Counted from the first letter of the whole stretch, positions 2 through 62,180 are shown. The stretch: 62,180 nucleotides of DNA, filler included, from 7 parts of 7 records of this genome joined end to end with filler, not necessarily neighbours in it, one strand, 5' to 3'. The notes: generated from the sequence alone by a model not told the origin. Program-made: numbers and translations.

Positions 2-1021
2 ATGGAGTGCCTGGACGAGGTGCTGCTCGAAGGCCCCGCGGATGGCGAGCTGCTCACGCTGATCCACGGCTGGCCGGACGACCTCCGTATGTGGGACGAG
101 CTGGCCCGGGCGCTGCTCGCCACCGGCAAATACCGCTGCCTGCGGATTACCATGCCCGGATACGGCAACAGGCACGGCAAAGGCGGCCGGCCTGTGGTGG
201 ACCCCAATTTCCACGAGGTGGCGGCAATGGTAGCGGACGCGATTAGACGAAATCTGAATGAGCCCACGGAGAAGACGAGCCTGGTCATCCACGACTGGGG
301 CTCGTGGGTGGGCGTGCAGCTGCAACGCCTGTTCCCCGGGCTCGTGTCGCGGATGGTCATCATGGACGTGGGGCCGCTCGACGCCGGCAGCAGATTCGGG
401 GCCAATTACTACCAGACGCTGAGTTCTATCATCTCGCTAGGGGTGTACTACCAGTGGATCAACTCAATCGCCTACTGGCTGTGGCGTGCTGTGCCGCTGG
501 TGGGGGCGCCACTGGGCAATCTCCTCCATAGCCTTGAGGTGAAAAGGTTCAAGAGGCTGCTCGACTCTGGCGAGCTGCACCCTCGAACCAACGTCAACCA
601 ATCGGCTTCGGCGGCTTACTTCTACCACTACTACCAAAAGGACTTCTTCCTTGACCAAGCGCTTGGCCTCTCACTGCGCGGCGGGAGTCCGCTCGCATCC
701 AGGCCCTCGGGTGCCGATGGCCTGGTTCGGGAGCCGAGCGTGCCGTGCCTGTTCTTGTACGGCCACAAGGGGCTTGGCCGGGCGTGGCAGCAGTGGATCG
801 AGGCGCTGCTTAGCAGGACTGACTCGGACGTCTTGCGCATCTACGGGACTCATTGGTTCATGCTCGACTCGCCGAATGAGACCGCTGTGGCAGTATTGGA
901 TTGGCTGGACCGTGGGCCGGATGGGGGTAAGATTGCGCCACAAATTCGTGCAGAAATCGAAGCACAACTAGTAGCACGGACCACGACTCGGAGGATCAAG
1001 AATCTTCGGAGCAAACTCTGA
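2..1021 (+). CDS. Alpha/beta hydrolase (epoxide hydrolase-like), predicted peroxisomal
   Basis: HGWPD oxyanion motif, HDWG nucleophile elbow, C-terminal catalytic His (GTHWF), C-terminal SKL (PTS1). Sits at the window edge, so the start may be truncated. Confidence 0.85.
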   Translation: MECLDEVLLEGPADGELLTLIHGWPDDLRMWDELARALLATGKYRCLRITMPGYGNRHGKGGRPVVDPNFHEVAAMVADAIRRNLNEPTEKTSLVIHDWGSWVGVQLQRLFPGLVSRMVIMDVGPLDAGSRFGANYYQTLSSIISLGVYYQWINSIAYWLWRAVPLVGAPLGNLLHSLEVKRFKRLLDSGELHPRTNVNQSASAAYFYHYYQKDFFLDQALGLSLRGGSPLASRPSGADGLVREPSVPCLFLYGHKGLGRAWQQWIEALLSRTDSDVLRIYGTHWFMLDSPNETAVAVLDWLDRGPDGGKIAPQIRAEIEAQLVARTTTRRIKNLRSKL

Positions 1022-1064
1022 CATGAATTGTGGTTTATAAATTCCTTAATCTAGATGGTTCGAA

Positions 1065-3560
1065 CTAATCCGCGATTTTACTATCCTCTAGATGCGCTAC
1101 CTGATCTTGCAAGCTCTCGACTTCATCCATCGTCTCGGCTAGTGTCGCTTTGCAGCCGGTGAGCGAATGCAAGATGTGCGTGAGCGTCTCATTGTTGAGC
1201 GAGTCGTGGATCTCGGCATTCTCGCGCGCGCACTGTCTCCTCAGCTCAAACTGATCCGCAGCACAAGTCTCCTGCTCGTTGGAGAGCTGCTGAGAGAAGC
1301 TCTGCATGTCGGCCCGAACTGCTTTGAGCTGGTCAATGTCTGCGAGCATCTGCAGCTCATCACCTGTCACAATCGACGCCTGCGCCTGCTTGGTGGCCCG
1401 CATTCTCTGCTCCAACCCGCTCGCCTCTTGCCGCTGCTGCTGCAGCTTCGTCTTGAGCTGCTTCTGCTGCTGAGAGAGACCGGCCAGGCTCGCCTGCATC
1501 TCCTGCTCGAATGCTCGTTGCTGATCCCTCACCGATCCGAGCTTCCCGGCCACTCCACCGAGGTCGTGAGACAGCCTGTCGCAAAAGCTGACCTCCAGTT
1601 AGTTGCAGCCGGCCTCGGCCCGCACCTGGCCAACTGCTGCACCTGCTGCAGCGCCGGGTCGACGTGCTCAAACACGTCAGCTGCTGTGCTCTGGTTCAGG
1701 CTCTGCTTGACCGTCGCAATGGTGGCCTTGAGCTTACTCGCCAGCTGGCTGCCCATCCCCTGCTGAGCCGTCGTGGTCTGCTTGAGCAGCATGCGTGCTG
1801 CCTCGGTCTCAGCTTCCCACTCCTCAATTCGCGGGTCGTAAAACCACTCATCCGCGGGCTCTGCCGCCGACTCCTCCGGCTCATGCACCGGATGCACTTG
1901 CCAGCTGGCTGCATTCCCCGAGCCGAGCGCTGCCATGCTTGTCCCAGCCAGCCACAAGTGAATCGGCACCGCAGCCAGCCAGCTCTGGCCACGCGCGGCA
2001 GAGCAGATTGTAACGCATTTTGAGGCCGGCCACTCGTCGTGGTGCACGCCTCGGCGCACCCCGGGTATGGAGATCGCAAACAGCTGGCCCGTCTGCTTCC
2101 GGCAGAAGATCCGATCCACAGAGAAAGGGTCCTTGCTGATCACCAGCTCGCCCGGCGGCCCAGCCAGCACCATCTGCTCAACTAGCAGCCCACGCCCGCT
2201 CGGTGCAGCCATCACCAGCCGGCTCGGCGCGGTACTGGCCCGGCGGAGCAGCCTCGCTGGGGTGGGTTGGGGTGACGATTCCGGCGGCGCCGTCTGTCAG
2301 TCAGTCAGGGCAGACAGGGCGAGGCGGCTGGACCGGGTCGGCCCAGGTTGGCTGCATTTGGTCGGCGAGCAGCACCACGGCCATCCCCAGCTGGAACCCG
2401 ACCGCCAGCTGCCAATCCACTCAGTGCACCGCACGCCAGCCGACTGTCACCGCTACGAGCTGCTGCGCCGGCACCGCACCGTTCGTGCTCCCGCAACTGG
2501 TCTGCAGGCAGAGCAGATTGGATGCGGCCGGGGTGGTGCCATCGGCAATCAGCGGGGCTAGGCCAGCCGACGCCTCACTGGCTTGGAAGATCGGCTGAAG
2601 CTGCGGAACGCCGATCAGTCGCGCCCGGCGGCCCACTACCGCGGGTGCGGTGGCCGTGTGTGGCTTGCGGATGACAGCAAACTGTTGGGTCGAGTCCTGA
2701 GCAGCCCGTGTCGTCGGCGGCTCAGGCCCGGGGCGCACCGAGAGATGATGGCCAATGAACCTGCCATCGGGCGCAAGCACGCCAGTGGTCTCGAGCCAAG
2801 CGACAGCGGAAGCCCTAGCCTCGGCCGGGAGAGAGGGCAGGGTGTCCGCCAGCTGCTGGAGTAAGCTGGTCGGGATCGGCGCGTGGTACGGCAGCACTGG
2901 GCACAGACTCCGTACGCTGCCGTCCGCTGCCAGAAGGTAGATCCCCACAGAGCCCCAGCCACTCGGCTCTGCAAAGCAGAACGAGACCGTATCCCGCCCG
3001 ACCTGAAGCGTCTGCTCCGGCTCGAGCCCGACTGCCTTGCCCGGCTCCCCGTTGAAGTCGAACCGGTACACCTCCAGTTGGCCGCCATCGCACAGCACGC
3101 ACAGGTGGTTGTGGCTCAGAGGGTGAAACATCACCCGTAGGACGGCTGCCCGGGCCGCCCGAACCACCTGCCGGCACCTGCACCCACGGTGAGCTCCTGG
3201 GCCGGCCGGGCCGCACTCGAGCGCCGGCAAGTTTTGGGTAGCCAGCCGGGGGAGCTTGAACACGGCGCAGTTGTTTGAATCGAACCCGGCGAGCAGCGAG
3301 GGCCCGAGCACCAGCTCGCGCGGCTGGAAGTCGAGCTTGTGCCCGGCCACCTCCAGCACGGCGCTCGACACCTGCGGGTCCGGGCCCTGGATGTTGAAGC
3401 AGCGCAGGCTCCGGGCGGCCGGGTCCCAACCCAGCAGCTCGGCCGCCTCCCCGCTCACCGACCGGGCGCAGCCCCACTGGAAGAGCCGCCCGGACGAGTC
3501 GGCCGCCGGGTCTGCTGGCCCCGCCCACGAGCGCGCCAGCTCCTCGTTGATCTTGTCCAT
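1065..3560 (-). CDS. Nup88/Nup82-like nucleoporin (beta-propeller plus C-terminal coiled coil), about 5 short introns
   Basis: Motifs FHPLSHNHLCVL and SFCF..WGSVGIYLLAADGSVRSLCPVLP, plus a C-terminal coiled coil. ORFs 2421-3677, 1529-2215 and 1065-1553 join through 38-42 nt GT-AG introns. Start could instead be the ATG at 3656. Confidence 0.65.
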
Positions 3561-3715
3561 ACGCCCAGCACTCCACCCGACCCGGAGGTGGTCGGTGGTG
3601 TCAAAAACTTGGGGCGGCCGCACGGAAGGGGGGGCCTGCCGACCAAGGTGCTTCATCAGGCGAGAGAGGAAGGGCACTCTTGGCGCTTGGGCTTCCCGGG
3701 CGTTGACCTTGGCCG

Positions 3716-4657
3716 ATGAGCAGTGACGAGCGCCTCCCGATGTTGGCCAGCCGGGACGCCGCAGTTGTGGGTATTCCGCGGCACAGCGAGGAGGCCAAGC
3801 AGCAGACCGCCGGAAACCGGATATGCAGCAGGCGCGACCTGCTCTTCGGCGGGCTTGTGGTGCTGCACGTTGCGGTCGGGGTAGGATTCTTCGCGATCCA
3901 GCGGCGCTGGGGCTTTGTTGACTGTGTCTACTTCACAGTGCTCACACTGACGACGATCGGGTATGGGGACATGGCTCCGGGCACCAACGCGGAGAAGATC
4001 TTCACGACATTCTACGTGCTGATCAGCTTCTGCCTGCTCGGCTATATGCTCGGCCAAGTGGCCCGCTATGTGGCCCGACGAGAGGAGGCACAGTTCCGGA
4101 TGCAGCTGCAGCAAGCCCGCAATGGCGGACAGGTAGCCAGCGCCGAGATGTCGGTACTCGGGCGCGTGGCCTTGGCCGCCCACGGGATGCTCTTCTTCCT
4201 CGCAGTGGGCACGCTGTTTTATTCCCTGGTGGAAGGCTGGACGAGCATAGATGCTTTGTACTTTTCTGCTGTCAGTCTGACCACTGTTGGATATGGAGAC
4301 TTGCAGATCAAGAGCGAAGGGAGCCGCATTTTCTCCATCTTTTACCTGCTGCTGGGCACTATGATGACCGCCTTTTTCCTGGGGACAATTGCCCAGTTGA
4401 CTTTGCAGAGCCAGCCTCGGAGCAGGCTGCTGGATATGCTCTACGATCATGAGACGAATCAGCAGGTCTGGCAGGGCAAATCTGACCAATCCGGCCAAGT
4501 GCCTGTGGTCACCGAGGCCGACTATATGACGTACATGCTGGTCAACTCTGGCCAAGTGGAGTGTGAGACGATCGAGGAGATCAAGTACAGGTACCAACAA
4601 TTGCATCGACAAGGCGTTGCCACCCAGCTAGCTAATCAATACTCATGTCAAAATTAG
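3716..4657 (+). CDS. Two-pore (TPK/K2P-type) potassium channel
   Basis: Two pore loops (TTIGYGD, TTVGYGD), 4 TM helices and a TPK-like C-terminus. No intron needed. Confidence 0.92.
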   Translation: MSSDERLPMLASRDAAVVGIPRHSEEAKQQTAGNRICSRRDLLFGGLVVLHVAVGVGFFAIQRRWGFVDCVYFTVLTLTTIGYGDMAPGTNAEKIFTTFYVLISFCLLGYMLGQVARYVARREEAQFRMQLQQARNGGQVASAEMSVLGRVALAAHGMLFFLAVGTLFYSLVEGWTSIDALYFSAVSLTTVGYGDLQIKSEGSRIFSIFYLLLGTMMTAFFLGTIAQLTLQSQPRSRLLDMLYDHETNQQVWQGKSDQSGQVPVVTEADYMTYMLVNSGQVECETIEEIKYRYQQLHRQGVATQLANQYSCQN

Positions 4658-4831: not shown

Positions 4832-7800
4832 TCAATCTTCGGATTCTTCGATCAGCTGACCCTCTTGGTCGAGCCCCTCCCACTCGGGCAAGATCTTCCG
4901 AGCCATTTCGAGCTTTGGAGTCTTCTTGAGTGGATCGTTGCACAGGTCAATCGTCTGGGCTTTGGGCTTGCTCTCCTGTGAGCACCACGAGCCGCACCAG
5001 AGCCACTCCATTGGCAAGCTGAAGATGGGCACCTGGTGCTGGGCGTAGTTAGGCAAGTCCTGGTCGAGATTGGCCAGACTGTTCTTGTCCTTGCTCAGCT
5101 GCTCATAAACCACCCGGAACTGGTCGCCGGCCGCACTTGCCCGCCACATCTCGAGATCGACAACAAACAAGGCTGAGATGTGGTACGGCTTGCCCGCCAG
5201 GTGCGATTTCCAAAAGCCTTGCTTCCAGAAGCGGAAGCCCTCGACTTCCTTGCGCGTGTCGCACATGGGCGTCATGGCTAGCGGGGCGCCCTGCAGGTCC
5301 AGATCCCACAGCTGCTTGAGGTCGCCGCGCACCACCTGATCGGCGTCGATGTAAATCACTTTCTTGACCGACAGCGGGAAGAGCACGTCCAGGAAAAGGA
5401 TCTTGTGCCCCCAGATGATCCGCTGCCGCTCGCTCTGCTGGTGCAACCAGCTTGGCCATCGGTAGGTGACCAGCTCGTACTTGATGTTGTGCTTCTTGGC
5501 AATCTTTGGCAGAAAGAATTGAGTGAATCGGGACGAAAGGAAGTTCTTGAGGAACCAGAACTTGACCTCTGACTTGGTATGCTTGATCACGCTCAGCATC
5601 ATGATCCGCAGGAACCGCTCGTACAGGTGCCCAGACGCCAGCGAGAACACGTGGATCGTCTCGGCCTCGGAAGCAGCCGCCACCGCCTTCATCGTCGCCT
5701 CTTGCTCTCCACCAAACAACTGGGCCCTGAGCGACTGAAACAGGGAGATTTCCTGGTCGAGCTTGGCACCCTTCTCGGGACCATCAACCATTGTTTTCAG
5801 TTTATCTGCTAGCTTTTGGGCTTCTTTAGTCACCTTCAGGCACAGTTTAGATGCTGCTTGCACAGCACCAGCTCCTGTTACTGCCTTGGCCTGATGGCAT
5901 GTAGTTTCTGCCTTTGACTTTGCAGCTTCATACTGTGCTTGCACTCGTCGTTGTGTCATCTTCACCCCACCTTGCGTCTCAGGTACCTGCAGCAGCTCGT
6001 CCTCCTCCCTGCCTGGCCGTTTGGACACTTCCAGCGTCACGTCCAGCCCCGTGAATGAGTCCACCGTCAGAAGCAGCTCGTCAGGCACGCTCCCGTTCCG
6101 CAGATGCTCTCCGCCCTTCATTTGGTACAGCTCAGTCGAGCGGCCGTCTACCATGTGCAGCGCGAACAGTCCCGGGCTGGCCTTGAGCTGGAAATAGCCC
6201 AAGTTGGCCATCACAATCGTGTCAGACACTACTGCCCGGTCCGGCCCGCTGCTATCTAGCGCCAGCTGCAGGCCACGCGGTGGCTGGCGAGAGGGCAGCT
6301 CAGCAGCGTTGCCCTGCACATATAGCTGGGCGATCCGGTACTTAGCAAACACGGACGAGCTGGGCGCGTCAGCCAGCTTGATATTGTCCATGTCCTGCCC
6401 AGACGTGACTGGTTCCATCTGCCATGCGCCCGGCGTGTCAAGATTGAGCGTGAGCATCTGCTGCTCCGGCAGTCGGTCCCACACCGCCCGCGGCTGCTCA
6501 AGCCCGGCCCCATCCGGCCCGAATTGCATCTGGCTGGCGGGCAGCACGTATCTGTAGAAGTTGTGCAGCGGGAGCTCGCTTAGGCTGCTCGGAGGGTACA
6601 GGATCAGCTTGACCGAGACCGGGAAGAGCTTGGTCAGGTACAGCAGCACAGGGGCCACACGCTGAGCGTCCTGGCTGAGCGGATCTAGAGCAGCCACAAT
6701 GTGCAGCGGGGCCTCGTCGGTCTCATTGGCTGAGCTGGTCGACACACTGATCTCCCTCAGAAGCGGCGTGTCCTTCTCAAACGCCGGTGGCATGTACGCG
6801 GCGCGCATGGCCGAATCAGTCTTCTCCTCGGCTGGCCTGAAGTAGACCGCGCTCGCGAGCAGCAGCTGATCACTTGCAAACCGCTCCTTGGCTGCTGTCC
6901 ATCTTGTGCCACCATACGCAAACTGGTGCCCGAGCTTGCCCCACGAGTGCTCGGTGTGCTCCTCCATGATCTCGGCGAGCTTGCTCGCCCTCAGCTTGAG
7001 CTCGGCGCTGGCCAGCGCGAACAGATCTTGCCCACGCACCGGGCCGGTCACCACCCGGCCGTTGGTGAGCACAGAGTTGGGCTTGAGCCCGAGCTTGGAG
7101 CACATTGCTTGCTGCCGCTCGAATAGTCTAGCCCAGCGTGGCTTGTCCTGGGCCATCTCTAGCAGCTTGTCAGCTGCCTCGGGGACAAACAGCTTAGCCA
7201 TCTTCTCCACCGCCACCAAAGGGACAGACAGGTTCCTATCAGCAAGCTCGAGCAGCCCAGCCGCCAGCCCGGTCGCATTCGGGTAGGTCACTGAAAGCTC
7301 GGCCGCCGCTGCCAGCGCCCGTGGCAGCAGAGAGTCGGCCGCGCCTGTATTCCCTGCCAGCAGCGCCAGCCGGGTGTTTTCAGGCTCGTGCTCACGGATC
7401 AACTCGGTGCCAGCCAGCGCCATCTTGACTCCAGCTGGTGTGGTGAGGTCCAGCACCAGCCAGACAGTCACTTGGCCCACCTGCGACCCCAAGTAGCAGC
7501 TCTCGCCGAGCACAGAGCGCGTGAGATGCCCGAGCGAGATCACGCCAGTCTCTGGCGGCTTGGTAGTGGCTGCCTCGAGCCTGGCCATCTCTGGGGCAGT
7601 GCGGAGCAAGTCAGGATGGAAGTGCTCGAGCGCCTGGTGGTGAGCCAGCACGAAGTCCTCGATGTTGGTCTCGTCGTCCAGCAGCTCCTCCTGCACCAGC
7701 TGCTGCAACTCGCGCTGCTCCATCATCAGCACCTGCATCAGCTGCCGCTGCAGCCCGCCCGCTGGGATCACTCGGCCATTGCACAGCGCCAGAGGCAGCT

Positions 7801-10005
7801 GTGCAAACCCCTTGGCCGCCGCATATTTGCTGGCGCTCGCTACCGGCTGGTTGAACCTCTTAGCAGTCAGCTGGGCTGCAAACAGCTCCGTGTCCGCCTC
7901 GAGCTCGGGCAGAGCCTCCGAGCAAAACTGCAGGAACGCCTCCTCGAGGTCAGCCTTGTTGAGCGGGGGCGGTGCGGCCTCGGTCTGCATTTGGTTCCGG
8001 CTTGAGAAGAGGTGGACCAGCCACCGGAGCGCAGTGATGTTGTCACTCTTAAGCCGCACGAACCGGTAGAGCCTGTACACCATCTCAGAGATCGACTGGT
8101 CTTGCGCCGCGCGGGCCGGCGGGTCGGCCGGGCACTGGAACTGGCCCTGGTGCAGTCCGAGCTGCTCGAGCGACCATTCGTACACACGCGGCTCGTTCGG
8201 GTCTGCAGGGAGTACAGGCACGATCCCGACTCTGATTGGCATCTGTTGCTGGAGCAATTGCCAGGCGACAGCGGCCATCTGGAGCCCCTCGTCGGTGCCC
8301 GGGTCCAGAACAAACATCAGGCTGATCAAATTCTTCCGCACAAAGTACATCTGGCCCGGCCAATTGGGCTGGAGAAGCGCCTTCACAGTCTTGGGCCAGC
8401 GCATGTACTGAGGATCCTTCTCCAAATTGTTTAGCCAGTGCACCAGCGGCGACCGGCCGTCCACGCGCAGCTGGCCGCCAGCCACCTGCCGCTGCTCGGC
8501 CGCCAACTGCTGCAGTGCGCTGGTGGCTTGGCCTGGCAGCAGCAGCGCCTCGATCGACTTGAGTGCCTTGATCTCACGACTGAGCTCCCCAAACAGCGTG
8601 AAAGGGTCGGTTAGCCCCATGGTGAGCGGCTTGCGGTTGAGCGACAGGAAGGTCTCGCCGCCCAGCTGCCGGGTGATCATTTCGGCTTGTTCGAGCGCCT
8701 TGAGCACAGTCTGATTCACCGGCACACGAGACAGCGAACGTGCCGCAATCGGCAGGTTGTGCGAAATGTCTCGGAGCGCCCGGAGCGGGTTGGGGGCGGC
8801 CCGTATCCGTTGGAGCGCCTGGGCCCCGATGTGCTTGAGCTCCCACACTTTGAGCGGCTGGTTGGCGTCCTCGAGCTCTGCTATCAAGTCGTCTTTGAAC
8901 GCTTGCAGCTGGCCTTCCAGATCTGGCCGGAGCCCCGCCAGCCGGTTAAAGTAAAACCTGCCCCGCGTGTGAGCATGCCCCGCCGGGCCGGGTACCCGCT
9001 CGTCTCCTCGTCCATGTCGACGCTCTTCTTCTCGCCGTCCTCCTTTGCACTCTCAACAGGCTGCGGCCCCCGCTGCAGCTCACCCGATGCCCGGACCCAC
9101 CTTGCGGTCGTCGACCGCCTTGTACTCCATGTTCTTGATCGCTAGCTCAGCGCCGTAGCCACTCACGTCCAGCGGCCGGCTGCTCTGGTAGTGGTGAACC
9201 AACGCATACTGCACAGACCTGCCCAAACCCTCGCTCGGTGCCCAGCCCACCGCGCCACCCGGCCGCCGCCAGCTCCTTGAGTCGGGCGTGCAGCGGCCGC
9301 ATCGCGGCCGTCTGCCCGATCGAGCCTACCAGCGTGGCCACGGGCTTGCCAGCAGCACTCTGGGGGTACAGGTGCAGCCCTGTCGTCAGGCCGCCAGCCC
9401 TGCCCCCGCTCGCCCGGCCTAAACGGCCTGCGCCCACCCGTCCGACAGCCCGGCCACCAGCTGCTCCAGCTCGTCCAGCGTACCCGCGGCCGCACCGCCC
9501 AGCAGCACCTGCGGCTGATCGCTCTCGGCCACACCGGCCTCCTCCAGCATCTGCAGGCCGGCTGAGTCACCCCCCCCACGGCGCAGCAGGACCGCGGCGG
9601 CCGTCTGGCGCAGGCTCTCGACCCGCGGCGAGAAGTGCCGGATCCCGAGCCCCATCCGGAACAAGCCAGCCCGGGTCGGACCGCCGAGCTGCTCAGCCAG
9701 CTCGATCCCTATCTCGTGAGCCTGCGTCCCGATTGGTCGGCAGCGCGCGCGGACCGGGCACCGTGCGGTCGGTCAGCTGGTCCTGAGCAAGCACTCGTTC
9801 GACGAACTGCCAGAATCCATCGGCGGAGACCTCGGCAAAGAACTCGCTGGACACAGGTGAGCGCGGCCGGGCGGGCGGGCGACCTGGCCTCGAGCACGAG
9901 CGGGCTGGCGGGCCAGCCGGCCTCGATACCGATCTTGACGCTCTTGCCCCACGCCAGAGGGCCGACCAGCAGCATGAGCAGCAACCCTAGCCTCGGTCGT
10001 CTCAT
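4832..10005 (-). CDS. UGGT: UDP-glucose:glycoprotein glucosyltransferase
   Basis: Signal peptide, SGYGAELAIKNMEYKAVDD motif, GT24 domain (FSLASGHLYERF, DAD, LANLDQDLPN, WLWCGSWC). Six 37-40 nt GT-AG introns lie in the first ~1.1 kb. Confidence 0.97.
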
Positions 10006-10143
10006 TGCCCAGAGTGTTCCCGCCGCGATTCCGCGATCGAGCAACGGCAGCTGCAGCGGCGCGCCGGTCGCCGGTTGCTGGCCTCGCCGGATGGGCCGGA
10101 GGAGTAGCGCTCTGGAAGGCCGCAGCGCTGCAGCGTCTCGCAG

Positions 10144-13829: not shown

Positions 13830-14773
13830 GGGCGTTGCCTCCTCCCAACAAACTCCAACGGACGGGCCCCGCCAAAGCCCTTGGGCACCGACGCCGATGC
13901 ACCGATCCAAGCCAGCCGGCTGCTCCCAGGAGACGGACGAGACCGGGCGGGTGGTCTGTGGATCCTCGTGCGAGGCGACGGCCGACTGCAGGTTCAACGC
14001 CACCGACGGGTTCCTTCACAAGCTCTGCTCGATCCAGCAGAAGCCGCGGGCAGGCGAAGCGTGCACCCGGCTGGACGGCCGGTGGCAGACCCGGTACGTG
14101 GAGCTGGTGCCCGGGCCGGAGGGGCACCACGGGATGCTCCGGTACCGGACCTCCAAGTACGACGCCGGCAAGGTAACGGAGCTCTCACTCCAGGGGGTGC
14201 GAGCCGTACTGTGGCGGGCGGAGGTGGATGGGGGGCGGGTAGAGCGAGTGCCAAAGGGCCAGCCGGGGCCCGACGCTGTGCACATACTGGTGCTGAGTGT
14301 GGCGGGCCGGTGCGGACCGGTGCGGCTGGGGCAAACGGCCGGTCAGGCTGTATGTGTTTAAGAATCTAGGGGAATGGACGGACGTTGAGATGCCGGTGTG
14401 GTACGAGCGGATCAAAGAAACCATTGCGGGGCCCCAGCACCTGGTGCCCCGCCCGCTCGGCCGGCCGCTGAGCCGTGGGCTGCAGCATGATGTCAGGCGG
14501 GAGCTGGAGCTCCGCGAGAGCCAGGAGGAGTCATTTAGGGAGCAGTACGAGCACAAGAGCACCGGGATTGACGAGCAGGTGCTGAGGCTTTCGGAGAAGT
14601 TTGGGCACGGCGGTGTGGATCTTGAGCCGTGGGTAGAAGATCATCTTACTGTGACTGAGCACTCCGATGACACCTCGGAGCATAGCGAGGTCGTAGACGA
14701 GCAGCCGGCTCGGGCCGAGCAGCCGACGGGTGTCGGGGTGTGCCGCACGTGCAGTGTCTGCGCAATATGCTAG
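13828..14773 (+). CDS. PH-domain protein
   Basis: DGFLHK...WQTRYVEL...LRYR...LYVFK...VWYERIK PH-like pattern across a 37-nt intron. In-frame ATGs at 13804, 13828 and 13897. Confidence 0.6.
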
Positions 14774-53400: not shown

Positions 53401-55643
53401 AACTCTACACTATGACAGGATCGCTGGCTGGTGAGGATCGCTATGGCAAGACTTTTGGCATCTGGCGCAACTCATTCAACTATGACTCGTGCTTCACGTA
53501 TGATGTGGACTCGGATGATGACTCTGGACTCGGATTGACCAATCTGTACGCAACCAAGCACGTGTATGTGGAAGATGCATGTGAGATTAAGCCAGGGTGC
53601 TGTGGCTACAAGATTTCTGGCACTGTGTACCCCGACAAGTTTGCCTACTACAAGATCCGGCCACCGCACTCTAACGTGAACATCCACGTCCGGGCTAAGA
53701 CAACAGAGGATAACATTGATTTGGTCTGGAGGAAGGATGCTGTGCCTACTTACACGACCTATGACAACACGTCTGTGCGGGAATCCAACCCGTGGGCTTT
53801 CACGATCCCATCCTCGGCCATCACCTGTGGCGAGACCTATGTCGGGTACGACTTTGGCGCCACCATGGGTACTGCTGCAGGAGTATCCCAGACTCATCTT
53901 GCTGCTGCGTTTACTACCATGCAGACCGAGCTGGAGGTTGACTTCAACAGTAACACTTTTGGCAAGGGTCCTGGGTGCCAACAGGGAATCGATAAGAAGG
54001 GGCAAGATGCCACATGCGGGAAGGCTGACAACAACCATAATGCCAACCCAAGGTCATGGACTGGCATGTCGGCGGCCACCAGCTTTGCGCCCTCCAACTG
54101 CTCTTTCTTCTACATTGGCGTTCGTGGCGACAACAGGTACCCCCAGAAGACAGGTGCCTCAGAATACGATATGACTGTTTTCATGGAGCCCTATTATCCC
54201 AACTTCCTCTGCTCCGATGCCAATGGAAAGGACACTTCCGATGGCACTGAATCGGACCCTGCTGATGCTTGCGTCTTCCTCGGGTTGACACTGGTGGAAG
54301 ATGCTGCCTTTGTGCTGAATGAGGACGACGACCTTGCTGTGCTGCGGCTCACTCCCAACACCAACATGCGCAAGGGTGCCATGTACCACTCGATCAAATT
54401 GCACATTTACGATGGATTTGAGGTAAGATTCACCTTCAGGATGAGTGGATTTAGCGTTGGCTGCAACTCGGTGCTTTACCCATCAGGCTTCTGCGGTGGT
54501 GGTGATGGTCTGTCGTTTGTCATTCACGATGCCATTGATGGCGACATGGACATTGGCTGCTACGGTGCAGCCATGGGCTTTGCCACTATTGCTGCCGAGG
54601 CTCAGGGTGATCACTTCCAGCGGCCGCGCTGCATGGAGGTCAGCAGCCCTACCTCAAACTGCGACTCGGGCCTCTCTACCTCCGACATCTTCACGACCGA
54701 TGCGGCCACAGCTGATGATGGCAACTTTGATGAGCTGTGTGTGAAGGGAGCGCTCTGCTGGAACTACCCGAACGGCTCCAGTGGATGTGGTGATAGCCCA
54801 GGCCTGTGCGGTGCCATTTCGTGCACCAAGGCCATCCCAAAAGTGTTTGCTGTAGAGTTTGACACCTGGAACAACCCCAACATCTACGACCCCAAGCAGG
54901 GTAAGAGCAGGTGGTGGATCAATGCGACCGCATTCGTTGGGTACAATGATAACCATGTTGCCATCTTTTCGAATGACAACGATGCTACGTTGTCTGGAAC
55001 TAGCAATGACCATTCTGGCGCTGACCACTTTGCTGCAACTCCATCGATCCCTGCTATGGCTGATGGCCAGTCGCATGAGGTGAAGATCAAGTACTGGGCA
55101 GCCAACCCTGCAGGGTCACATAAGCTGCAGCTCAAGAAGAACCGTGGTCTTGGTTACGACACGCCTGTCGCAGCAACGCTGGATTGCCAAGACAGGACTG
55201 CTGATGTCGACGCGTCTCTCAGGAGTCCGGCTCCCGACCACTGCTATCCAGGCACTGTTGTCAACAGTGAACCGGGCACAGTGTCGATTTACATTGATGA
55301 CATGCAAAAGCCCGTGCTTCAAGCCAAGATCTCTTTGATGAAGGGCAGCAACGCCAATCATGTGTCTGATGTTGATACCGACCGCTACGTACTGGATCTG
55401 TTCGGCAACGGCTATGTGGGCTTCACAGCTGCCACTGGTGGCGAGCGTACTGGTGTGCACATGAACGACGCGGGTGTATCCCGAACCTTTGACTACACCA
55501 AGCCTGATACTAGTGCCGGGTATGGGGCAAACACACCTGCGCAGTATGCCAACGAAAAGGCCAAGAAGCGGGAAGGTGCGGCACAGAGGCATGAGATCCT
55601 CAGCTGGACGTTCTGCAATAAGATTGGCTGTGTGCCAATCTAA
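50484..55643 (+). CDS. Large extracellular repeat protein: tandem beta repeats, PPC-like domain and C-terminal L-type (legume) lectin domain (5' partial)
   Basis: Repeats TKFTTELKxG...V.SI.SD..L; lectin motifs LRLTP, GGDGLSFVIH, FAVEFDTW, NHVAI, GYVGFTAATGG, HEILSW; uninterrupted 1719-aa frame. Confidence 0.85.
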   Translation: MHKTKFTTELKSGYIVVPYLGDGGSHPYTVQSVQSDTQLATTELLASSFSDVEYQVGNYKCSGTISYPDTSKTTLYGSWAPNPTKFTTELKDGHTINTAAHGTPSAADARIGSVVNDQHAHLIHKFDHTFADQDLYVKIGSRGTGLISGVQGTSRITGSDPCKPGNPCALPTVFTEQLMVNDVIEILNNTDTSPNRDRHYYTVASIQDNAHMTINECILQDGDNQFDATTACTGMSDSIQDGKLPPFTRFMIRSVHAQGYLIAKKADAGLSYDYTGDDEAATSVVTTTAAQASTGTLTSYISKGYAVIAKVKEQDTEYSTDPDQKHPYAPKYERRVVHRVTGPSTFEITRKFSQGFDNAADGTTDFHFESCPTASNELGETRTEVGPGFISSAGSTEVYDNVQSCVVTSPQSTTTPQENMAHFTNWAHVGYHLTLSSTGVSRTITRVLSDTQIELNRCFEEGVTFNNYAYSYTVRKGKDVNKHMINNSWVNDNTVVASNHFLYWKPAFATGGSNSRQQHPVTQPKQVYSNALRASENKPLSEGYVIESQDAYLLYAPVCYGSGRCVAKASHSLVGLEGYKSTGGAIFSSSPPPVRNYDFVKIGTDDPNAPVVNGITMYTQPYYTNCKPVCTITAYYEGVAETHTVVGTVTSHNSTHLNTELPFAANNMSLYNNKPVPALTSDATTLYAPQEGISFRVRYVTGTGTVNWCPNGAYGELNCGPGTCSTNYRTCFADPAQNGIFKLTGASKSTKTKFKSETSAQWSLTVPCTTYCINNSTGETSAPNDVANGHTASTPMCTSDLTQVNPENVTISQVLSDTYLTVSTQFSQSNYKQCYSIGTIPGLGHVTSPAGSTNVNGDTQTRFQSQLKVGYNIQVGGITQKITSIASDSALTVGSPFAGGINQNSRYHFSGKLGTGEVSTSEGQTEVYGTLDVTETKFSEELAEGYLLMVGSHYKVVTAISSSTVLYVDTPFELYTMTGSLAGEDRYGKTFGIWRNSFNYDSCFTYDVDSDDDSGLGLTNLYATKHVYVEDACEIKPGCCGYKISGTVYPDKFAYYKIRPPHSNVNIHVRAKTTEDNIDLVWRKDAVPTYTTYDNTSVRESNPWAFTIPSSAITCGETYVGYDFGATMGTAAGVSQTHLAAAFTTMQTELEVDFNSNTFGKGPGCQQGIDKKGQDATCGKADNNHNANPRSWTGMSAATSFAPSNCSFFYIGVRGDNRYPQKTGASEYDMTVFMEPYYPNFLCSDANGKDTSDGTESDPADACVFLGLTLVEDAAFVLNEDDDLAVLRLTPNTNMRKGAMYHSIKLHIYDGFEVRFTFRMSGFSVGCNSVLYPSGFCGGGDGLSFVIHDAIDGDMDIGCYGAAMGFATIAAEAQGDHFQRPRCMEVSSPTSNCDSGLSTSDIFTTDAATADDGNFDELCVKGALCWNYPNGSSGCGDSPGLCGAISCTKAIPKVFAVEFDTWNNPNIYDPKQGKSRWWINATAFVGYNDNHVAIFSNDNDATLSGTSNDHSGADHFAATPSIPAMADGQSHEVKIKYWAANPAGSHKLQLKKNRGLGYDTPVAATLDCQDRTADVDASLRSPAPDHCYPGTVVNSEPGTVSIYIDDMQKPVLQAKISLMKGSNANHVSDVDTDRYVLDLFGNGYVGFTAATGGERTGVHMNDAGVSRTFDYTKPDTSAGYGANTPAQYANEKAKKREGAAQRHEILSWTFCNKIGCVPI

Positions 55644-55980: not shown

Positions 55981-56243
55981 GCTGGCGCCTGTGGGCGGGC
56001 GGTGCGTGATCTTTGAGAGCCGGCGACTCTGGCACGAGGTGCTCCCTTGCCGGTTACGGCATCGATTCGCAGTGACGCTCTGGGTGGAGCGATGCGAATG
56101 AAGGACCTAGGTATCGTCGGTACAGCCGGCTTGTATGCTCGCCAATAAACTCGCAAAATGACTATAAGATGATACGTGCATAGATATCTATGACTACTTG
56201 ACAACGATCTAGCTAAACATACGAGTACGATCATACTGCATAA

Positions 56244-59200
56244 TCATAACACTCGATCTGAAGCTTCTATGGCATCATAGTACTCACTAGACTCATCGCT
56301 TAAGGTCAGCTCGTCCACAACTTTGTCCATTTGAACAGTCTGTTCAATCTCAGACACCCGTTGATCAAAATAGTCCATCGAATTTGTGTAGAAAAGTGTG
56401 CCTCGACGATCACAGGTACTTGAAACTCTTGTCAGACTCGACTTCTCTTCTTTATATTTGCAGTAATACTGCTTGGCAATCGCCTTGGTTTGTTCTTTTT
56501 CTTCATCAGTTTTGCCTTCAAGATTTGCAGTCTGCATGACAGGCGTACCCGCCAAGAAAGCATCCCATTCCTCGTCTGGAGCATCTCGGGCCGGGATTGA
56601 AGTCAGAAAATCCGCCAGGTCACCCATCTGGTGTGCAGCCAACTCCTCCAGTGCGTGTGCCCGGAGATACGCCTTCCGGTTATACGCACGCCGAGCCTTG
56701 ACCGCAACAACGATCAACGCGAGCACTATTGTCAGAGCCCAGCCAACCATGAGCCAACCCATTAAAAGAAAATTTCGAGCAACATCATAGGTTATTGTGT
56801 CGCCCGTGATCTCATCACGCACCACGTTCCAGCCAATCGCGTCACCCACAATGATCCAGCATGGAATTATCACGCACACAAGCGCTGCCGTGAAAAGAAG
56901 CGACCATTGCATTGCTGTTGGGTCCCACTTTGGTTTTAGCGCCTTCAAGCTCTGGGCGTGTGACCATGAGGTCACGGCGTCCTCTTCACATAGGTCGAAG
57001 TCCGATTCGAAAGGTAGATCAATCAGCTGTGGCGCATCAGCTTCTGGATGCCAGAGCACCGGGAAAAAGTCAACTATCCACACTCTGCCTTGGGACAAGA
57101 GCGCAATACCGGCCATTGATATTCCTGCGATCAGAGCAGACGTCCAGCCCCTTTGATCTGGCTTGCATGAGCAGGTGCCACCACCCAACACATAGGTGTT
57201 CCATTCCCTTGTGTCACATACAGGGTGACCGTCCATCTGTTGCGTGGACTCTTTGGCGCTTCCAAGCAATGCTACCATCAGCATACCCTGGATGCCAACC
57301 ATGACACTCGCGAGCCTGGTGAGTCGAGCTCGATGCTCGTCTGGGGGCTTGAGCATTTTGTGGGGCATTCGCCAGAAAAGCCGTAGATTGATTAGCCACA
57401 GCAGCTCACCACCGACAAAACAGACAAGCAGAGTGAAGTTGAGCATGTTGTCTACCCCTGAGGATTCGCTACTTGAGGCGTTCGTGATCCAGTCGAAGCC
57501 ATCGTTGCTCCTGTACGCAACAAGGATGAGGCAGAAAATTGCTGCTGAGCTTCCATATATCCGCAGTCCGTAGCCAGTTAGAGCATAGCACACCCCTGGG
57601 GCGAGCAATAGTGTGATCACAGTCAGTAGTATGCCTATGGTGAAGCACACAACCTGCGCGGGGCACTTTGTCTGGCAGGCCACGCTCGTATACAGGAAGG
57701 TCAGAAAGGCAAGCATGCACACAAGCAGGTCCAGTCCCAGGAAGAAGATGCACCCGACCCAAAGCTTCTTGAACATATTGCGCCACTTCCCATCCAAAGT
57801 ACTGTACTGGCTGACGCCTAGCCAGATCCCGCTCCTGTTGAGAAAGCCAAATGTCGGGTATAGATTATGAATTCCCACAGAGAGCCGGTCCAATCCGATA
57901 AGCTGCCAATGGAATTCACGTGACTCGGAGGTCTCCTGCTCGCTCTGCTTGCTCCGCTCGCCCTCCTCGTCGTGGCTGTTGTCCGATATACAGCAACTCA
58001 GTGCACGTATCGCGTCACGCAGGTTGGCAACTGCAGGTGTCGTCCAGCTCACACTGAGTATTGCCCGTCCCTGGCCCTCTAGAATACCAGATTCAAAGAG
58101 CTTGTTCTTCGCACCAAAAGTGATGGCCAAGTTGGGCTGGTCTGGCGGTGGGTCTAGGAGCAGGGTTACCAGCGGCAGCCTCGGGTCTAGCTGCAGGTGC
58201 AACCATCGATCGACATCCTGCTCGTGCACAACCGATGCAAGAGATATCTCATCGCAGCCAATTGTCAACTGCTGGCCAGGTTTGTTGTATGTGAGCACTG
58301 GCCGAGTTATGTCGATATTCATTTCGCCATGCATGGCCGTGTGACAGCGGAAGGTGGGTAAATTGATTACGAGCTGGCCGTTGCTAAAGCTTGCGCGGCA
58401 ATCAAGCAAGCCAGCTGAATCACTTGCTCTCAAGCTGATGTCGCAAGAGTGCCCGTCAGCCACCTTCAGCTGCCCTTTCAGAGCCTCCAGCTCCTCTCCA
58501 AACAGCTGTGACCCTTCAGACCCACGTGACTCGCCGCTCTTGACCAAATTGATATGATCTGCCAGCATCTGTGAAAGCTGCTGCGCCGCAACCGCGTGAC
58601 ATCTGGCGCACTCATTTAATTGCTCGCGGAGATCCTCCCTAAACTGCTTTTCATCCATATGAACTGAATCACGGCCGTCGAAAGCTTGACTGATTGCTTC
58701 TGTCAGCTTGCTAGAGCCATCTGTGCAGCTTCTCTCCCGCTCGGGGATCTGGCCAAGCAGCTTTGGGCAGTGCGCACCAAACTTGCCCTGCTGAAGTATA
58801 ATCTCCACTGGAGCACACGCGGCAAGCGAAAGTGCTGGTGTATGCACCGCGGCTGAATTATACACCAGCTTGATTCCATGTTCAACCAAGATCTCGACGG
58901 GGATACTCGTCTCTAAGTTGCGCATAGTCTTCCAAACCTATCCAAGCACGTCAGGCGCAACCTTGGGCTAAGGCTCACCCGGGCACGGACTTGTCGACCC
59001 AGCGAGCCGATAGTCCCGATAACGGTCGACTTAGTTGCTCCCATCTCCACGGCCATATGATCTGGGCTCAGGGTTGGCGAAATGGGTGGCGAGCTCAGAC
59101 GAGAATCCGAACTGGGCTGGGCCATCTCAGCATTTAGGCCGACGATGAACGCATTAAGAGCGCTAAGCTTGGTTTCATCGAACCGGAGAACGAGCTGCGA

Positions 59201-61786
59201 GCCACGTGGGAGCATCAAACTCTCCACCCTGCCGCAATTAATCAGACCGTATTCAGCAGGCTGGACCGACCTGTGACTCGTCCTTCTGGCCACGTATCTC
59301 ACGAAGGCTGCCACTTCCACTTGTGAGTTGTGGTCTGGCGGGTCCATGTACAGCACCCGCTGCTGCAGGCCAACTGCGCTCTGATCCTGGCTCACAAGCA
59401 TTTCTAGCAGCCCGCGCCGGCTCTTCTTCCATTTGAACTGCCCGAGGTACACCAACTGCTGTCCCGCCACTCCCTGCAGCCCCATGCTGATCGACTGAGT
59501 TGCGAGCCGTTTGGCCTCTTTGCCTTCATTGTACAGCTGCTGCTTGGCGGCAAATGTGCCCTCGTTGTCCAGGCTCAGCATCCCGGGTGACATGACGAGA
59601 CACCCAGTGGCGCATTCGCCCTCTGCGTGCTCGCCACTGGGCGTTGGCGGGAGCACAACTGATGGCACTTGCACGGTGCACTTGAGTCTCAGCTGCTTGC
59701 GCTTTCCAACTGGCCAGCCCTGGAACGCAATGTAGTAAAGTCCCACCTCGCTCTCCGGTGGCGCGTACAACAGCAGCTTGACATACTGACAGCGTGTGCT
59801 CTTGCCAATGCAGTGCAGAGATGTGGGCTCTTCGAGCTGGAGTTGGCTCCTGGGCACGAGCTGCTGCCAACTGCCTCCCACGTCAGGGCTGTCTGCCGAC
59901 CCGAGCAGCTGCACTTCAGGCACTGTCACTGCATTATCCGGGGCGGGGCACAGCTCGATCGTCCTCACTTCGAATATGTCTTCTAGATCAAGCACTATCT
60001 GCACCTCACTCTGGTTCGCAGTCAGCCTGTGCTTGTAGTAGGCGCCCTGCTCGCTACTTCGGCCAGTCATCTCTAGCGATTCCCGACCCGACTCGCGGAG
60101 CGTCTCCCGATGGCGCCTGAGAAAGCTCCATCTCTTGTCCTCGATGAGTGTGGTCAGGTGCCGAGCGCTGAAGTGGTCTTCCAGAGCGGACCTGTTCCCC
60201 TCCTAGCACGCGAGCAGGCTCCCAGACTCACCGGCTAGTGCGCGTGCAGAAGCTCATCATAGGCTCGGCCCAAATCTCCCTGCAGATCGGCTTGCTCGGG
60301 CTTCTCGGGCTAGAGTCGGCAGGGCTCAGGCCCGGGCTTGCTGGGGCACTGCTGGCATGGATGTTTTCAATTATGTAAACCAGCCCGTGCTTGATGTGCT
60401 CGACGAGCAGCACAAACTGGAGCGGAGCCTGCCCCCGGCTCAGCTCGGGCCGGCCGTTTGTTGTGCCTGCACGCTCAGCTGGAGGTTGGCGTTGAACCGA
60501 TCCTTGTGGGCGTCCTGAAGCAGCTGGTGACTGAACCCTCGAAGCACTGCTCCGCGCGACGGGTCGTCCAGCTCTGTCCTGCGGCAAAAGTCCTGCCGGC
60601 CGCATGACGGCTAGCCCGGCACTGGCTGCCCGCCTGGTCAATGTTTGTCACAACGAGCTCAACTAGCTCCGTCCCTCGCTCCAGAGGCCCTGCCAGTCCA
60701 GCAACCCGGCGAGTCTGGCCCGGCGGCCCCATCCGCAGCTGCAGCCCGGGTCTCAGCCGCATGGGTGAGACTTCCAGGCACCGCGAGAGACTTCCAGGCG
60801 ATCGAGAGCAGGAACTTGCGCTGGTATTTGACGATCAAATGCACCAGCAGCACTGGCTCGCCGCCGTCTTCAAGCTCGTCGTCCCGGCCCATTTCTAGCT
60901 GCGGCCGCAGCCCAGCCCACACATCGTCCCGGCACGCCGGCGGGCCCATTTCCAGCTGCATGCCGAACCTGCCCCGAGCAGTCAACCGTGACTAGCCCCC
61001 GCAGCGCACAGGCTAGCAGTGAGTGACAGGTGGTCCCATTCAAACATCCGCCCGGCCCGGCTATCGTGGTTGAGCTCCAGACGGTCAAACCGGGCGATCG
61101 CAGCCCCGCCAAACTTGAACGTGCCTTGGTGGCCTCGAGGGTGCGGGAGCAGCACGAGCGTGATGTCGGATATGACGATATCGATATTAGCGATCGCTTC
61201 CTTCAGGTACTTTTGCACCTCGCCCACCACACGAGCCGGCGCCAGCGTGGCCTGCACCCGTGCAAACAGCCCGGGCGGCTCATCCGGCCCGGGGCCAGCC
61301 TGTTCGGCTGCCTGCTCGGCCGCCTGCCGCCGAGCCCTCGCGGCAAGGAACTCATCAAACCTGTCGGTGCGCAGTCCGAGCCGGACCCGCTCCAGCTGCC
61401 CCACAGTCAGCCCGTCGCCGGCCGGCCCGCACCAGGATCTTGGAGCGCTCCTCCTTGGCCAATCTGAGTTCGATCCGTGCAGCCCCGATCTGGCCGCCCC
61501 CGTCCGGTGGCAGCGTGAACTCGATCCCGGTGTGCTCGAGCAGCTCGCGCACAAGCTCGGGTTGGGCGGTCAGCCGCTCGGCCTCGATCCGGAACCCGCC
61601 CCGGTGATTGTGGACCCGGAGCTGGCCGTCGGCCGGCCGGACCCAGTCAGCGAGCAGCCGGGCCAGCTGGGCATCGATGCTGAGCTTCTCGTCGTACAGC
61701 GCGGCCACCAGGGCCGACGAGCCCAGCCCAATGTTCTTGACTGCGCCCAGCGCGTTGTTGCGTGCCCACTCGCCCCACGAACCCAT
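56244..61786 (-). CDS. About 1750-aa protein: Chorein-N (VPS13-like) N-terminus, discoidin/galactose-binding-like domain, about 8 C-terminal TM helices; about 7 introns
   Basis: ORFs 61355-61786, 60982-61554, 60659-60985, 60475-60762, 60228-60641, 58913-60070 and 56244-58925 join through ~36-43 nt introns. Domain calls are by eye. Confidence 0.65.
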
Positions 61787-62016
61787 CTTGTCAGCTGATC
61801 ACGAACCCAGCTGCCGACGAGCCCATCATCAGCGAGGTGGCAGCTGATGTTTTGTACAGCTTTATTATTCTACCATGATCTACCCGACTTGATAGTCCAA
61901 ATTGTAGATTTCCAGCGAGGGGGGCGTTAGGAATCGATCGATCAAAATCCCGCTTTGGCTCACCAATCGATTGCTCGAGCCTGCGGAGTCAGCGGGAGAG
62001 GTGAGCAACCCAAGCC

Positions 62017-62180
62017 ATGAAGACGCCTCTTGCCGTGTCGTTGCTGATGCTCGCACTCGCCACCGGTGCGTCAGGCTGCTCGCCCCGGCGGTTAGCGGGC
62101 GGGGCAGCGGGCCCGACCCTCCAGGGCTTGTACGAGGAGTTCCACAGCGAGCACCACCACCACCACCACCACCACCACCA
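62017..62180 (+). CDS. Secreted or membrane protein with poly-His tract (3' partial)
   Basis: MKTPLAVSLLMLALAT signal peptide, 42-nt GT-AG intron, then (CAC)n running to the window end. Confidence 0.55.
   Translation, partial: MKTPLAVSLLMLALATGASGCSPRRLAGGAAGPTLQGLYEEFHSEHHHHHHHHH

Follow-up and report, generated by a model that had tools for sequence, protein, structure and literature searches.

The window analysed here, that is the whole stretch of 62,180 nucleotides, is gene-dense DNA from a marine protist and consists of seven contigs joined via N44-TTAATTAATTAA-N44 linkers, the contigs being 4-16 kb in size with at most 12 genes each. Genes were predicted with a self-trained gene HMM, in which either strand was entered equally and no strand memory was kept, and the models were then curated by hand. 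The resulting genes, together with the spacers discussed below, are collected in Table 1. Several ATG positions are uncertain. The median intron measures 40 nt and the GC content drops along the genes, the 5' part being richer than the 3' part in 23 of 24 genes. RNA cover consists of sparse contigs (those listed are 100-310 nt long), the depth of which is not usable for ranking, and the uncovered parts of contig 2 are uninformative.

Table 1. Genes and selected spacers of the window
Feature	Position	Strand	Evidence and remarks
Alpha/beta hydrolase	2..1021	+	Contig 1, 5' end is the contig edge; Pfam PF12697
Propeller-like and coiled-coil protein, 3 introns	1065..3656	-	Gene model, codon score; no Pfam match at 1e-3; tentatively Nup88-like, no match
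Two-pore K+ channel, intronless	3716..4657	+	PF07885
UDP-glucose:glycoprotein glucosyltransferase (UGGT)	4832..10005	-	PF18404 and others; homologues
Sugar transporter	10144..11868	+	PF00083 across three exon ORFs
SK-type K+ channel	12144..13829	-	PF03530, PF07885
Hypothetical gene	13897..14773	+	Gene model and codon score alone
Sgf11-like	14935..15615	-	PF08209
P2X receptor-like, upstream member of same-strand pair 1	15987..17638	+	Contig 2; PF00864; RNA contig cover
Serine carboxypeptidase S10, downstream member of same-strand pair 1	17865..19391	+	PF00450
LYR protein, intronless	19639..20121	-	PF05347; RNA contig runs through finder-proposed intron
PhyH dioxygenase, intronless	20269..21345	+	PF05721
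SPFH/Band 7 protein, first in minus-strand run of three	21507..23215	-	PF01145; intron 21859-21899 RNA-spliced
BD-FAE esterase, intronless, middle of minus-strand run of three	23565..24596	-	PF20434; homologues
StrG/PhyH-like protein, intronless	24716..25597	-	Atlas matches 0.94-0.98; PF05721 E=0.016
Hypothetical gene	25619..26862	+	Gene model, codon score; alternative start 25634
Hypothetical membrane protein	26970..27549	-	Intron 27173-27209 RNA-spliced
Small coiled-coil protein, intronless	27604..28032	+	Codon score; RNA contig 27710-27860 (no strand information)
Janus/Ocnus protein	28259..28817	-	PF05005; two RNA-spliced introns; start uncertain
Hypothetical gene, truncated by contig end	28966..29252	+	Gene model alone
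Long helical-repeat protein	29717..32096	-	Contig 3; ORFs of 357 and 485 aa; lowest codon score of the long genes; tentatively Sfi1-like
Threonine synthase	32192..33758	+	PF14821, PF24857; homologues
Hypothetical gene, intronless	34014..34796	-	Codon score; Atlas matches 0.84 at most (lead)
Hypothetical tail-anchored-like protein, 2 introns	34829..35624	+	Gene model, codon score
OTU-like and RING protein	35866..37020	-	Weak PF02338 and PF13639, under curated cut-offs
Phospholipase D family protein	37224..39121	+	PF00614
Secreted EGF-domain protein	39386..40493	-	Contig 4; weak PF23106
Coiled-coil protein, 5 introns	40584..41457	+	Gene model, codon score
BNR-repeat protein, intronless	41570..42832	-	Weak PF13088
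Hypothetical membrane protein, upstream member of same-strand pair 4	42857..43968	+	Model, codon score; 3' part hand-curated
BspA-type leucine-rich-repeat protein, intronless	44361..45623	+	PF13306
Pentapeptide-repeat gene	46051..50383	-	PF00805; fills contig 5, no countable pair
Large lectin-domain gene	50484..55643	+	PF18483, under cut-off; fills contig 6, no countable pair
2OG-Fe(II) oxygenase, 3' end	55982..56101	+	Contig 7; PF13640
Large gene, 7 introns	56244..61786	-	ORFs of 897 and 429 aa; codon score; tentatively Vps13-like, no match
Probable secreted-protein start, truncated by stretch end	62017..62180	+	Sequence alone; weakest gene call
Head-to-head spacer, the shortest at 21 nt (36 nt if the gene starts at 25634)	25598..25618		CCGTTA at 25605
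Head-to-head spacer, 24 nt	42833..42856		CAACGG at 42845
Head-to-head spacer, 32 nt	34797..34828		CCGTTA at 34803
Head-to-head spacer	10006..10143		CAACGG at 10042
Other head-to-head YAACGG sites	13856, 28915, 40526		
Head-to-head YAACG sites without final G	3701, 20154, 27569, 37043, 61925		
Shortest same-strand spacer, 119 nt	24597..24715		AT-rich putative terminator half, GC-rich putative promoter half; CAACGG at 24609
Same-strand spacer	17639..17864		TAACGG at 17854, ATG 5 nt downstream
Same-strand spacer with short repeats	23216..23564		CCGTTA at 23467
Same-strand spacer upstream of BspA	43969..44360		CAACGG at 44090
Typical AT-rich tail-to-tail spacer	33759..34013		

The alternation of strands in the stretch is confirmed. 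Opposite-strand neighbours were found in 25 of the 29 adjacent pairs (p=5e-5 against 50%; 95% interval 68-96%). When the partial gene at 62017 was left out, 24 of 28 pairs switched (p=9e-5); the sequence-only reading had arrived at the same count, with a probability of about 1e-4, and its counts per contig were reproduced identically by the memoryless HMM and curation (7/7, 8/11, 5/5, 3/4 and 1/1, the last becoming 2/2 with the partial plus-strand gene). All five multi-gene contigs alternate, and the longest alternating run, of eight genes, takes up the whole of contig 1. The longest same-strand run consists of three genes; long same-strand blocks of the kinetoplastid or dinoflagellate type are absent here. 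The layout had been called the opposite of kinetoplastid strand clusters, and rightly so, since Leishmania switches at 2% (Table S1 of PMC2871058).

Such a pattern would also arise if antisense shadow ORFs in GC-rich DNA had been taken for genes, or if same-strand neighbours had been merged. About 14 of 34 genes are without outside support, and among the Pfam- or RNA-supported genes alone 9 of 16 pairs switch; thus the high switch rate hinges on the hypothetical genes being real. Where both genes have outside support 7 of 10 pairs switch, against 18 of the 19 remaining pairs (Fisher p=0.10), and dropping the short hypothetical genes leaves 21/26. In a synthetic control of six contigs the finder did fuse three same-strand neighbours, but it predicted 19/63 switches where 19/66 were true, so that alternation was not invented by it, in a test that was lenient, the model having been trained on the same genes. 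Against an artefact, all Pfam matches of 295 strand-blind ORFs (at least 95 aa) fell on the predicted strand, none on the other, and with a leave-one-out codon model trained on Pfam-supported genes alone the sense frame exceeded the best antisense frame in 35 of 35 models. Four of the introns predicted for the minus strand are spliced out in RNA contigs, their ends reading CT..AC. Among the hypothetical genes, one is spliced on the predicted strand, one is RNA-covered and one has family support. Moreover, the GC content of the junctions separates the classes without recourse to reading frames (head-to-head 0.54-0.72, tail-to-tail 0.39-0.61). An annotation artefact is already largely refuted, and we consider it very improbable.

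The spacers differ by class. The 13 head-to-head spacers measure 21-230 nt from ATG to ATG, all of them below the 1 kb used to define bidirectional pairs, with a median of 90 nt and a GC content of 0.62; the 12 tail-to-tail spacers measure 43-275 nt (median 168 nt, GC 0.43). The four same-strand spacers, two of which are stretched by repeats, have a mean of 272 nt. This fits the sum of the head-to-head and tail-to-tail means, 279 nt (resampling P=0.57), the length to be predicted if the genes in those two arrangements have a promoter or a terminator in common; under a half-sum model of 140 nt, 272 nt was reached in none of 20000 resamplings. All four same-strand spacers contain an AT-rich stretch of 60 nt (GC 0.28-0.40), while the GC content directly before the ATG is 0.50-0.72.

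The word YAACG(G) had been adopted in advance, which is a reservation about the counts; we take YAACGG to be a Myb consensus. YAACG occurs in 12/13 head-to-head, 2/12 tail-to-tail and 4/4 same-strand spacers, figures which were unchanged after start corrections. It is missing from one head-to-head spacer (32097-32191), is usually single and lies in either orientation; the shuffle mean for the head-to-head class was 3.5, and none of 1000 shuffles matched the observed 12. The longer YAACGG is present in 7/13 head-to-head, 0/12 tail-to-tail and 4/4 same-strand spacers, that is in 11/17 on the promoter side against 0/12 (p=4e-4), at a density of 4.5 per kb of promoter-side spacer versus 0.6 elsewhere. 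CAACG and AACGG rank at the top of all 5-mers in head-to-head spacers, the top count of 9 being near the shuffle mean maximum of 8.0. Where the spacer is just 21, 24 or 32 nt long, both ATGs are 7-20 nt away from the word. On the terminator side, AATAAA was found in just 2 of the 12 tail-to-tail spacers, and none of the listed RNA contigs bridges such a spacer. Palindromic 6-mers are in excess in the tail-to-tail spacers (76 versus 48±7, each of the 12 exceeding its own shuffle mean), but they were rejected as a terminator signal, since introns show an excess too (67 versus 46).

Our preferred explanation, which the anatomy of the spacers makes probable, is a streamlined protist genome in which the genes mostly stand in pairs, the head-to-head ones round a single, very short promoter and the tail-to-tail ones round a single AT-rich terminator. 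The proposal that divergent pairs share a promoter and convergent pairs a terminator, already made in the sequence-only reading, is supported by spacer length, GC content, motif and the additive length of the same-strand spacers. YAACG(G) would be a putative core-promoter element, Myb-like and active both ways, with very short 5' UTRs, and the AT-rich block would terminate transcripts arriving from either side. A same-strand junction would then require a full promoter and a full terminator, at a cost of about 130 nt extra each, and might in addition see its promoter drive transcription in the reverse direction, into the gene lying upstream. The excess of opposite-strand neighbours could be maintained because compactness is selected for and such interference is selected against.

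It had further been suggested that the exceptions may be recent insertions; on this reading the alternation would be ancestral and strict, and the inserted genes would be intronless ones of secreted proteins. The esterase and BspA genes are indeed intronless, and both products begin, as judged by eye, with a hydrophobic, signal-like stretch. One insertion creates exactly one same-strand junction, which suits the P2X/S10 pair and possibly BspA; short repeats lie in two of the same-strand spacers; and three of the four privately promoted genes start with a signal-like stretch by eye, a proportion (against about 5/27 of the others) that was noted post hoc and is not relied on. However, intronless genes are not enriched among the exception genes (3/7 versus 7/24, p=0.65). 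GC3 is native-like, and so are the codon scores, among them those of the esterase and BspA. The minus-strand run of three requires two insertions or one inversion: removal of the esterase leaves one same-strand junction, while a single in-place inversion accounts for both. The nearest relatives of the esterase are unnamed marine sequences (53-55%) and a choanoflagellate protein (Bicosta minor, 42% over 94% of the length), above named bacteria (32-35%). For BspA, of the 36 plasmid records from a tblastn the 8 listed gave matches of 31-38%, and the search of the representative set was dominated by giant repeat proteins. Recent insertion of the exceptions is not supported, and we regard it as improbable.

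Opposite-strand layouts of this type are already known, and the present lineage is a further case. According to the available text of PMC3566019, gene orientation alternates in Nannochloropsis gaditana and in further photosynthetic stramenopiles, with runs of up to 15 genes, and non-photosynthetic ones show no such preference. As in Nannochloropsis, most neighbours are divergent or convergent in our single window; unlike there, where many pairs are described as less than 1000 bp apart, the head-to-head ATGs are separated by 21-230 nt with one shared word, and nothing found here links the source organism to stramenopiles. A survey of 64 species reports non-random orientation, with opposite-strand neighbours in excess, for Cyanidioschyzon merolae (65.8%), Monosiga brevicollis (64.7%), Cryptococcus neoformans (63.2%) and Thalassiosira pseudonana (61.1%) (PMC2871058); these are genome-wide values of 61-66% with median spacers of 0.5-1.5 kb, compared with 86% in one window here. 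Opposite-strand packing of compact algal genomes is also described for Micromonas (convergent pairs, overlapping 3' UTRs and, in contrast to the short ones here, long upstream spacers, in one low-GC region; PMC4815162) and for Vitrella and Chromera, where head-to-head pairs are in excess (PMC4501334). For O. tauri 2288 bidirectional pairs are given in the accessible text, without a rate (PMC4035068). Gene orientation is not treated in the available parts of bioRxiv 10.64898/2026.04.17.719054 or PMC6731263. The word itself resembles the core-promoter Motif 3 of Trichomonas vaginalis, which is bound by the Myb-like M3BP (PMC4450334): both are Myb-recognition-like words near a protist gene start. 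The Trichomonas motif replaces the initiator and is not described, in the text available, as bidirectional or linked to gene order.

Control loci were obtained by scanning a metagenome with the UGGT domain, which yielded 80 loci. At L005, called Bathycoccus prasinos via an identical NCBI protein, 11/12 pairs switch, and in a joined map of L037 and L039, termed Ostreococcus-like from synteny, GC content and tree position, 10/13; the picoalgal controls represent one syntenic locus, and their species are not independent samples. They share with the window strong alternation and short AT-rich tail-to-tail spacers, but have few introns and rarely YAACGG; in L005 the head-to-head spacers measure 87-940 nt, and one of six has the word. 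Thus neither tiny spacers nor YAACGG are required for alternation. Less compact loci gave 2/4 (L053), 1/1 (L057), 3/6 (L060) and 2/4 (L061), with gene finding incomplete or unverified. The control locus suggests that well-sequenced picoalgae may switch at high rates, for which a published value was not found in our literature search. Neither the metagenome UGGT scan nor the viral collection gave a second genomic locus of the source lineage, the two closest UGGT loci (89% and 76%) resembling transcripts without neighbours.

Since several compact genomes stand at 61-66% and a picoalgal locus is equally extreme, the 50% adopted earlier is an unsuitable reference for surprise. It is quite possible, and compatible with the explanation preferred above, that the bias is a moderate and familiar one of about 60-66%, the stretch standing at the upper end of what many windows yield by chance, while short contigs break at tandem duplicates, with a loss of same-strand pairs. 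Were the true rate 65%, 25 or more switches in 29 would have a probability of 0.010, which corresponds to about 2 of 209 windows, and at 60% to about half a window; the 7/10 among doubly supported pairs, the published rates and the contig size of merely 4-16 kb agree with this. The 95% interval narrowly leaves out 66%, for an unselected window, and the recurrence in every contig with more than one gene also speaks against it. The genome-wide rate of the source genome is probably about 65-85%; a rate beyond that of other genomes is not demonstrable from one window of 209. A rate of at least 80%, above all those in the 64-species table, seems to us unlikely, together with the cause proposed for it, a promoter reduced to a single orientation-blind word for two genes whose start codons can be as close as 21-32 nt; two polymerase start complexes would then have to share that DNA or use it alternately, and promoter chemistry would set the order of genes.

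As to the cause, space saving may be incidental: with inherently bidirectional promoters, antisense or read-through harm to same-strand neighbours would alone select alternation, or new genes would survive best where they take over the unused direction of a promoter already in place. This is conceivable but rather doubtful. The orientation of the motif relative to the gene varies in same-strand spacers, the Bathycoccus locus alternates in spite of long head-to-head spacers, and in E. cuniculi, whose spacers are very short, the rate is just 51%; the 21-32 nt spacers and the short introns, on the other hand, indicate real length pressure. Alternation by itself is a further instance, in another lineage, of a pattern already described. 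The spacer anatomy is of greater use: promoters, terminators and same-strand junctions are short enough for the price of every orientation to be taken straight from spacer length, which makes testable the old question of whether space saving or inherently bidirectional promoters drive alternation. A distance of 21-32 nt between two start codons would represent an extreme for initiation by RNA polymerase II, and spacers of this size might serve protist engineering as minimal promoters working both ways.

In a quick tree the UGGT and five marine sequences without a name form one group (support 96), which stands beside Spironema sp. BW2 (85, with a long branch), a position too weak for naming a group. 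Telonemids are not placed with hemimastigotes in the available text of PMC12432456. No named stramenopile occurs among the 120 UGGT matches listed, many of which are unnamed. An affinity to Picozoa, to which partial esterase matches alone point, was rejected. For the threonine synthase, diplonemid and dinoflagellate matches (53%) stand above named diatoms (46-50%).

Genes were predicted with a self-trained HMM, in which either strand was entered with equal probability and no memory of the previous gene was kept, and the gene starts and ends were then curated by hand. In the seven contigs (4.3-15.9 kb each, with a fixed linker between them) neighbouring genes lay on opposite strands in 25 of the 29 pairs (p=5e-5 against 50%, interval 68-96%), the strand strings being +-+-+-+- (7/7 switches), ++-+---+-+-+ (8/11), -+-+-+ (5/5), -+-++ (3/4) and +-+ (2/2). 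Without the last partial gene the final string gave 1/1 and the total was 24/28 (p=9e-5). The switch counts of the sequence-only reading were thus reproduced by a finder blind to the preceding strand plus curation, and the alternation is confirmed.

Pfam matches occurred only on the predicted strands in a strand-blind scan of all 295 ORFs of at least 95 aa, and the sense frame was preferred in 35/35 models by a leave-one-out codon model built from the Pfam-supported genes. Four predicted minus-strand introns were skipped in RNA contigs, one of them in a gene without known family; a further predicted intron proved to be retained in RNA and was dropped from the gene models. On synthetic contigs 19 of 63 predicted pairs were switches against a true 19 of 66, with three merges, and same-strand runs were recovered by the finder. 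Some results go the other way: the pairs with outside support for both genes switched in 7/10 cases and the remaining pairs in 18/19 (p=0.10), while dropping the hypothetical genes altogether left 9/16. The window is one of 209, among which about two would look like it at a true rate of 65%, and short contigs probably tend to break at tandem duplicates. A genome-wide switch rate of at least 80%, with one promoter word shared between genes as its cause, is considered unlikely.

The window, which belongs to a gene-dense eukaryote, has a GC content of 60% and short spliceosomal introns (median 40 nt, 60 predicted introns below 60 nt), with GT and some GC donors. Small shares of its sequence occur in public marine DNA and RNA runs, and pieces from these match contig 2 at 95-100% identity. 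For the UDP-glucose:glycoprotein glucosyltransferase (UGGT) no close named relative was found among the 120 matches listed; in a quick tree the sequences grouping with it were unnamed marine ones, and its placement next to Spironema was weak.

The spacers fell into three classes: head-to-head (n=13, 21-230 nt, median 90, GC 0.62), tail-to-tail (n=12, 43-275 nt, median 168, GC 0.43) and same-strand (n=4, 119-392 nt, mean 272). With only four cases, the same-strand mean is close to the head-to-head and tail-to-tail means added together (279) and not to their half-sum (140), as expected if promoters and terminators are shared. These spacers also look composite, an AT-rich stretch being followed by a GC-richer end before the ATG. 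The word YAACGG was present in 7/13 of the head-to-head and 4/4 of the same-strand spacers but in 0/12 of the tail-to-tail ones, and YAACG in 12/13, 4/4 and 2/12, respectively; the head-to-head counts were reached by none of 1000 dinucleotide shuffles. Mostly one copy per spacer was found, and both orientations occurred. Where the spacers were shortest (three cases), the word lay 7-20 nt from both start codons. GC drops from 5' to 3' in 23/24 genes, giving a saw-tooth along the window with peaks at the head-to-head junctions; it falls from about 70% to 50-60%, most steeply in long genes. Self-complementary words, abundant in the tail-to-tail spacers, were rejected as a terminator signal since introns are rich in them as well.

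The spacer anatomy fits the shared promoters and terminators proposed in the sequence-only reading. The strands and the spacer classes are observed; we infer the functional sharing and the selective cause of the alternation. Most likely, a single short promoter built around an orientation-blind Myb-like word serves two genes, and one AT-rich block terminates two transcripts. A same-strand junction would cost about 130 nt extra, and its upstream gene may face backward firing; either pressure would favour alternation. The promoter anatomy is unusually compact and merits a genome-wide count.

The other part of that interpretation, namely that the exceptions may be recent insertions, is not supported. 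Intronless genes were not enriched among the exceptions (3/7 vs 7/24), the codon scores of the exception genes were native-like, and unnamed marine and choanoflagellate relatives of the esterase ranked ahead of named bacteria. The StrG/PhyH-like gene, third among the minus genes of the run around the esterase, is genuine. If the esterase is deleted, one same-strand junction is left, while flipping it removes both; therefore a single inversion would be the simpler history of this run. The repeats in the adjoining spacer are possibly a rearrangement scar. Homologue searches provided no dating for BspA.

As control, loci from picoalgae, as long as 20 kb, were taken from the UGGT scan and annotated in the same way. 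The B. prasinos locus showed 11/12 switches, with Pfam matches on the predicted strand for 8/12 genes submitted, and its switch rate did not differ from that of the window (p=1). Further Bathycoccus-like copies gave 10/11, 10/11 and 6/7, and an Ostreococcus-like map 10/13; all are copies of one syntenic locus and therefore count as one control only. Genome-wide switch rates of Bathycoccus and Ostreococcus-like algae are worth counting.

The layout is a known kind of genome organisation, to which the window adds a further case. According to the available text of PMC3566019, Nannochloropsis has the same divergent-then-convergent arrangement, in runs of 15 and common to photosynthetic stramenopiles; the rates there may exceed the others quoted here. 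The accessible part of PMC2871058 (Table S1) lists four species at 61-66% switches and most at about 50%. Likewise from partial texts, a head-to-head excess is described in chromerids (PMC4501334), convergent overlapping pairs in Micromonas (PMC4815162) and a Myb-like core-promoter motif in Trichomonas (PMC4450334). Beyond these papers, a mostly title-level search, thin on subscription journals, turned up no protist described with near-strict alternation or with a two-way promoter based on AACGG.

Among the other features, the insert in the phospholipase D intron looks, from its sequence, like a scar left by repair with telomere repeats and accompanied by a duplication. The extra RNA base upstream of the chosen Ocnus-like start means that the true start may be further upstream.

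Coordinates of the features discussed
Position	Strand	Feature	Observation
4832-10005	-	UGGT gene	query for the control loci
15794-15886	+	possible gene start	37-nt intron; head-to-head with Sgf11 at contig end; left out of the counts, would give one extra switch
23216-23564		same-strand spacer by esterase	a 10-11-nt unit present three times, plus a GA microsatellite
23565-24596	-	esterase	middle of three minus genes
28845		extra base	in one RNA contig (depth 2)
34014-34796	-	intronless hypothetical protein	nearest Atlas clusters bacterial beta-barrel proteins at 0.84, lead only
35866-37020	-	OTU-like deubiquitinase domain and RING finger	one gene; both Pfam matches below cut-off
38067-38156	+	predicted 90-nt intron, phospholipase D gene	about four telomere-like units (CTAACC/CCCTAA, one altered) flanked by two copies of a stretch of about 20 nt
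43969-43990		short direct repeat	opens BspA spacer, adjoining the stop predicted for the upstream gene
44361-45623		BspA	exception gene
46051-50383	-	very long pentapeptide-repeat protein	at least 1290 aa; fills contig
50484-55643	+	intronless ORF	>1700 aa; repeated beta-rich modules, C-terminal legume-lectin-like domain
L005 (B. prasinos) 1-20798; L039; L037; L051		picoalgal UGGT locus	enolase, phosphomannomutase, UGGT, KH protein, GAPDH, CRAL-TRIO, prefoldin-like, carbamoyltransferase, rhodanese; syntenic between Bathycoccus and an Ostreococcus-like alga, alternation almost perfect
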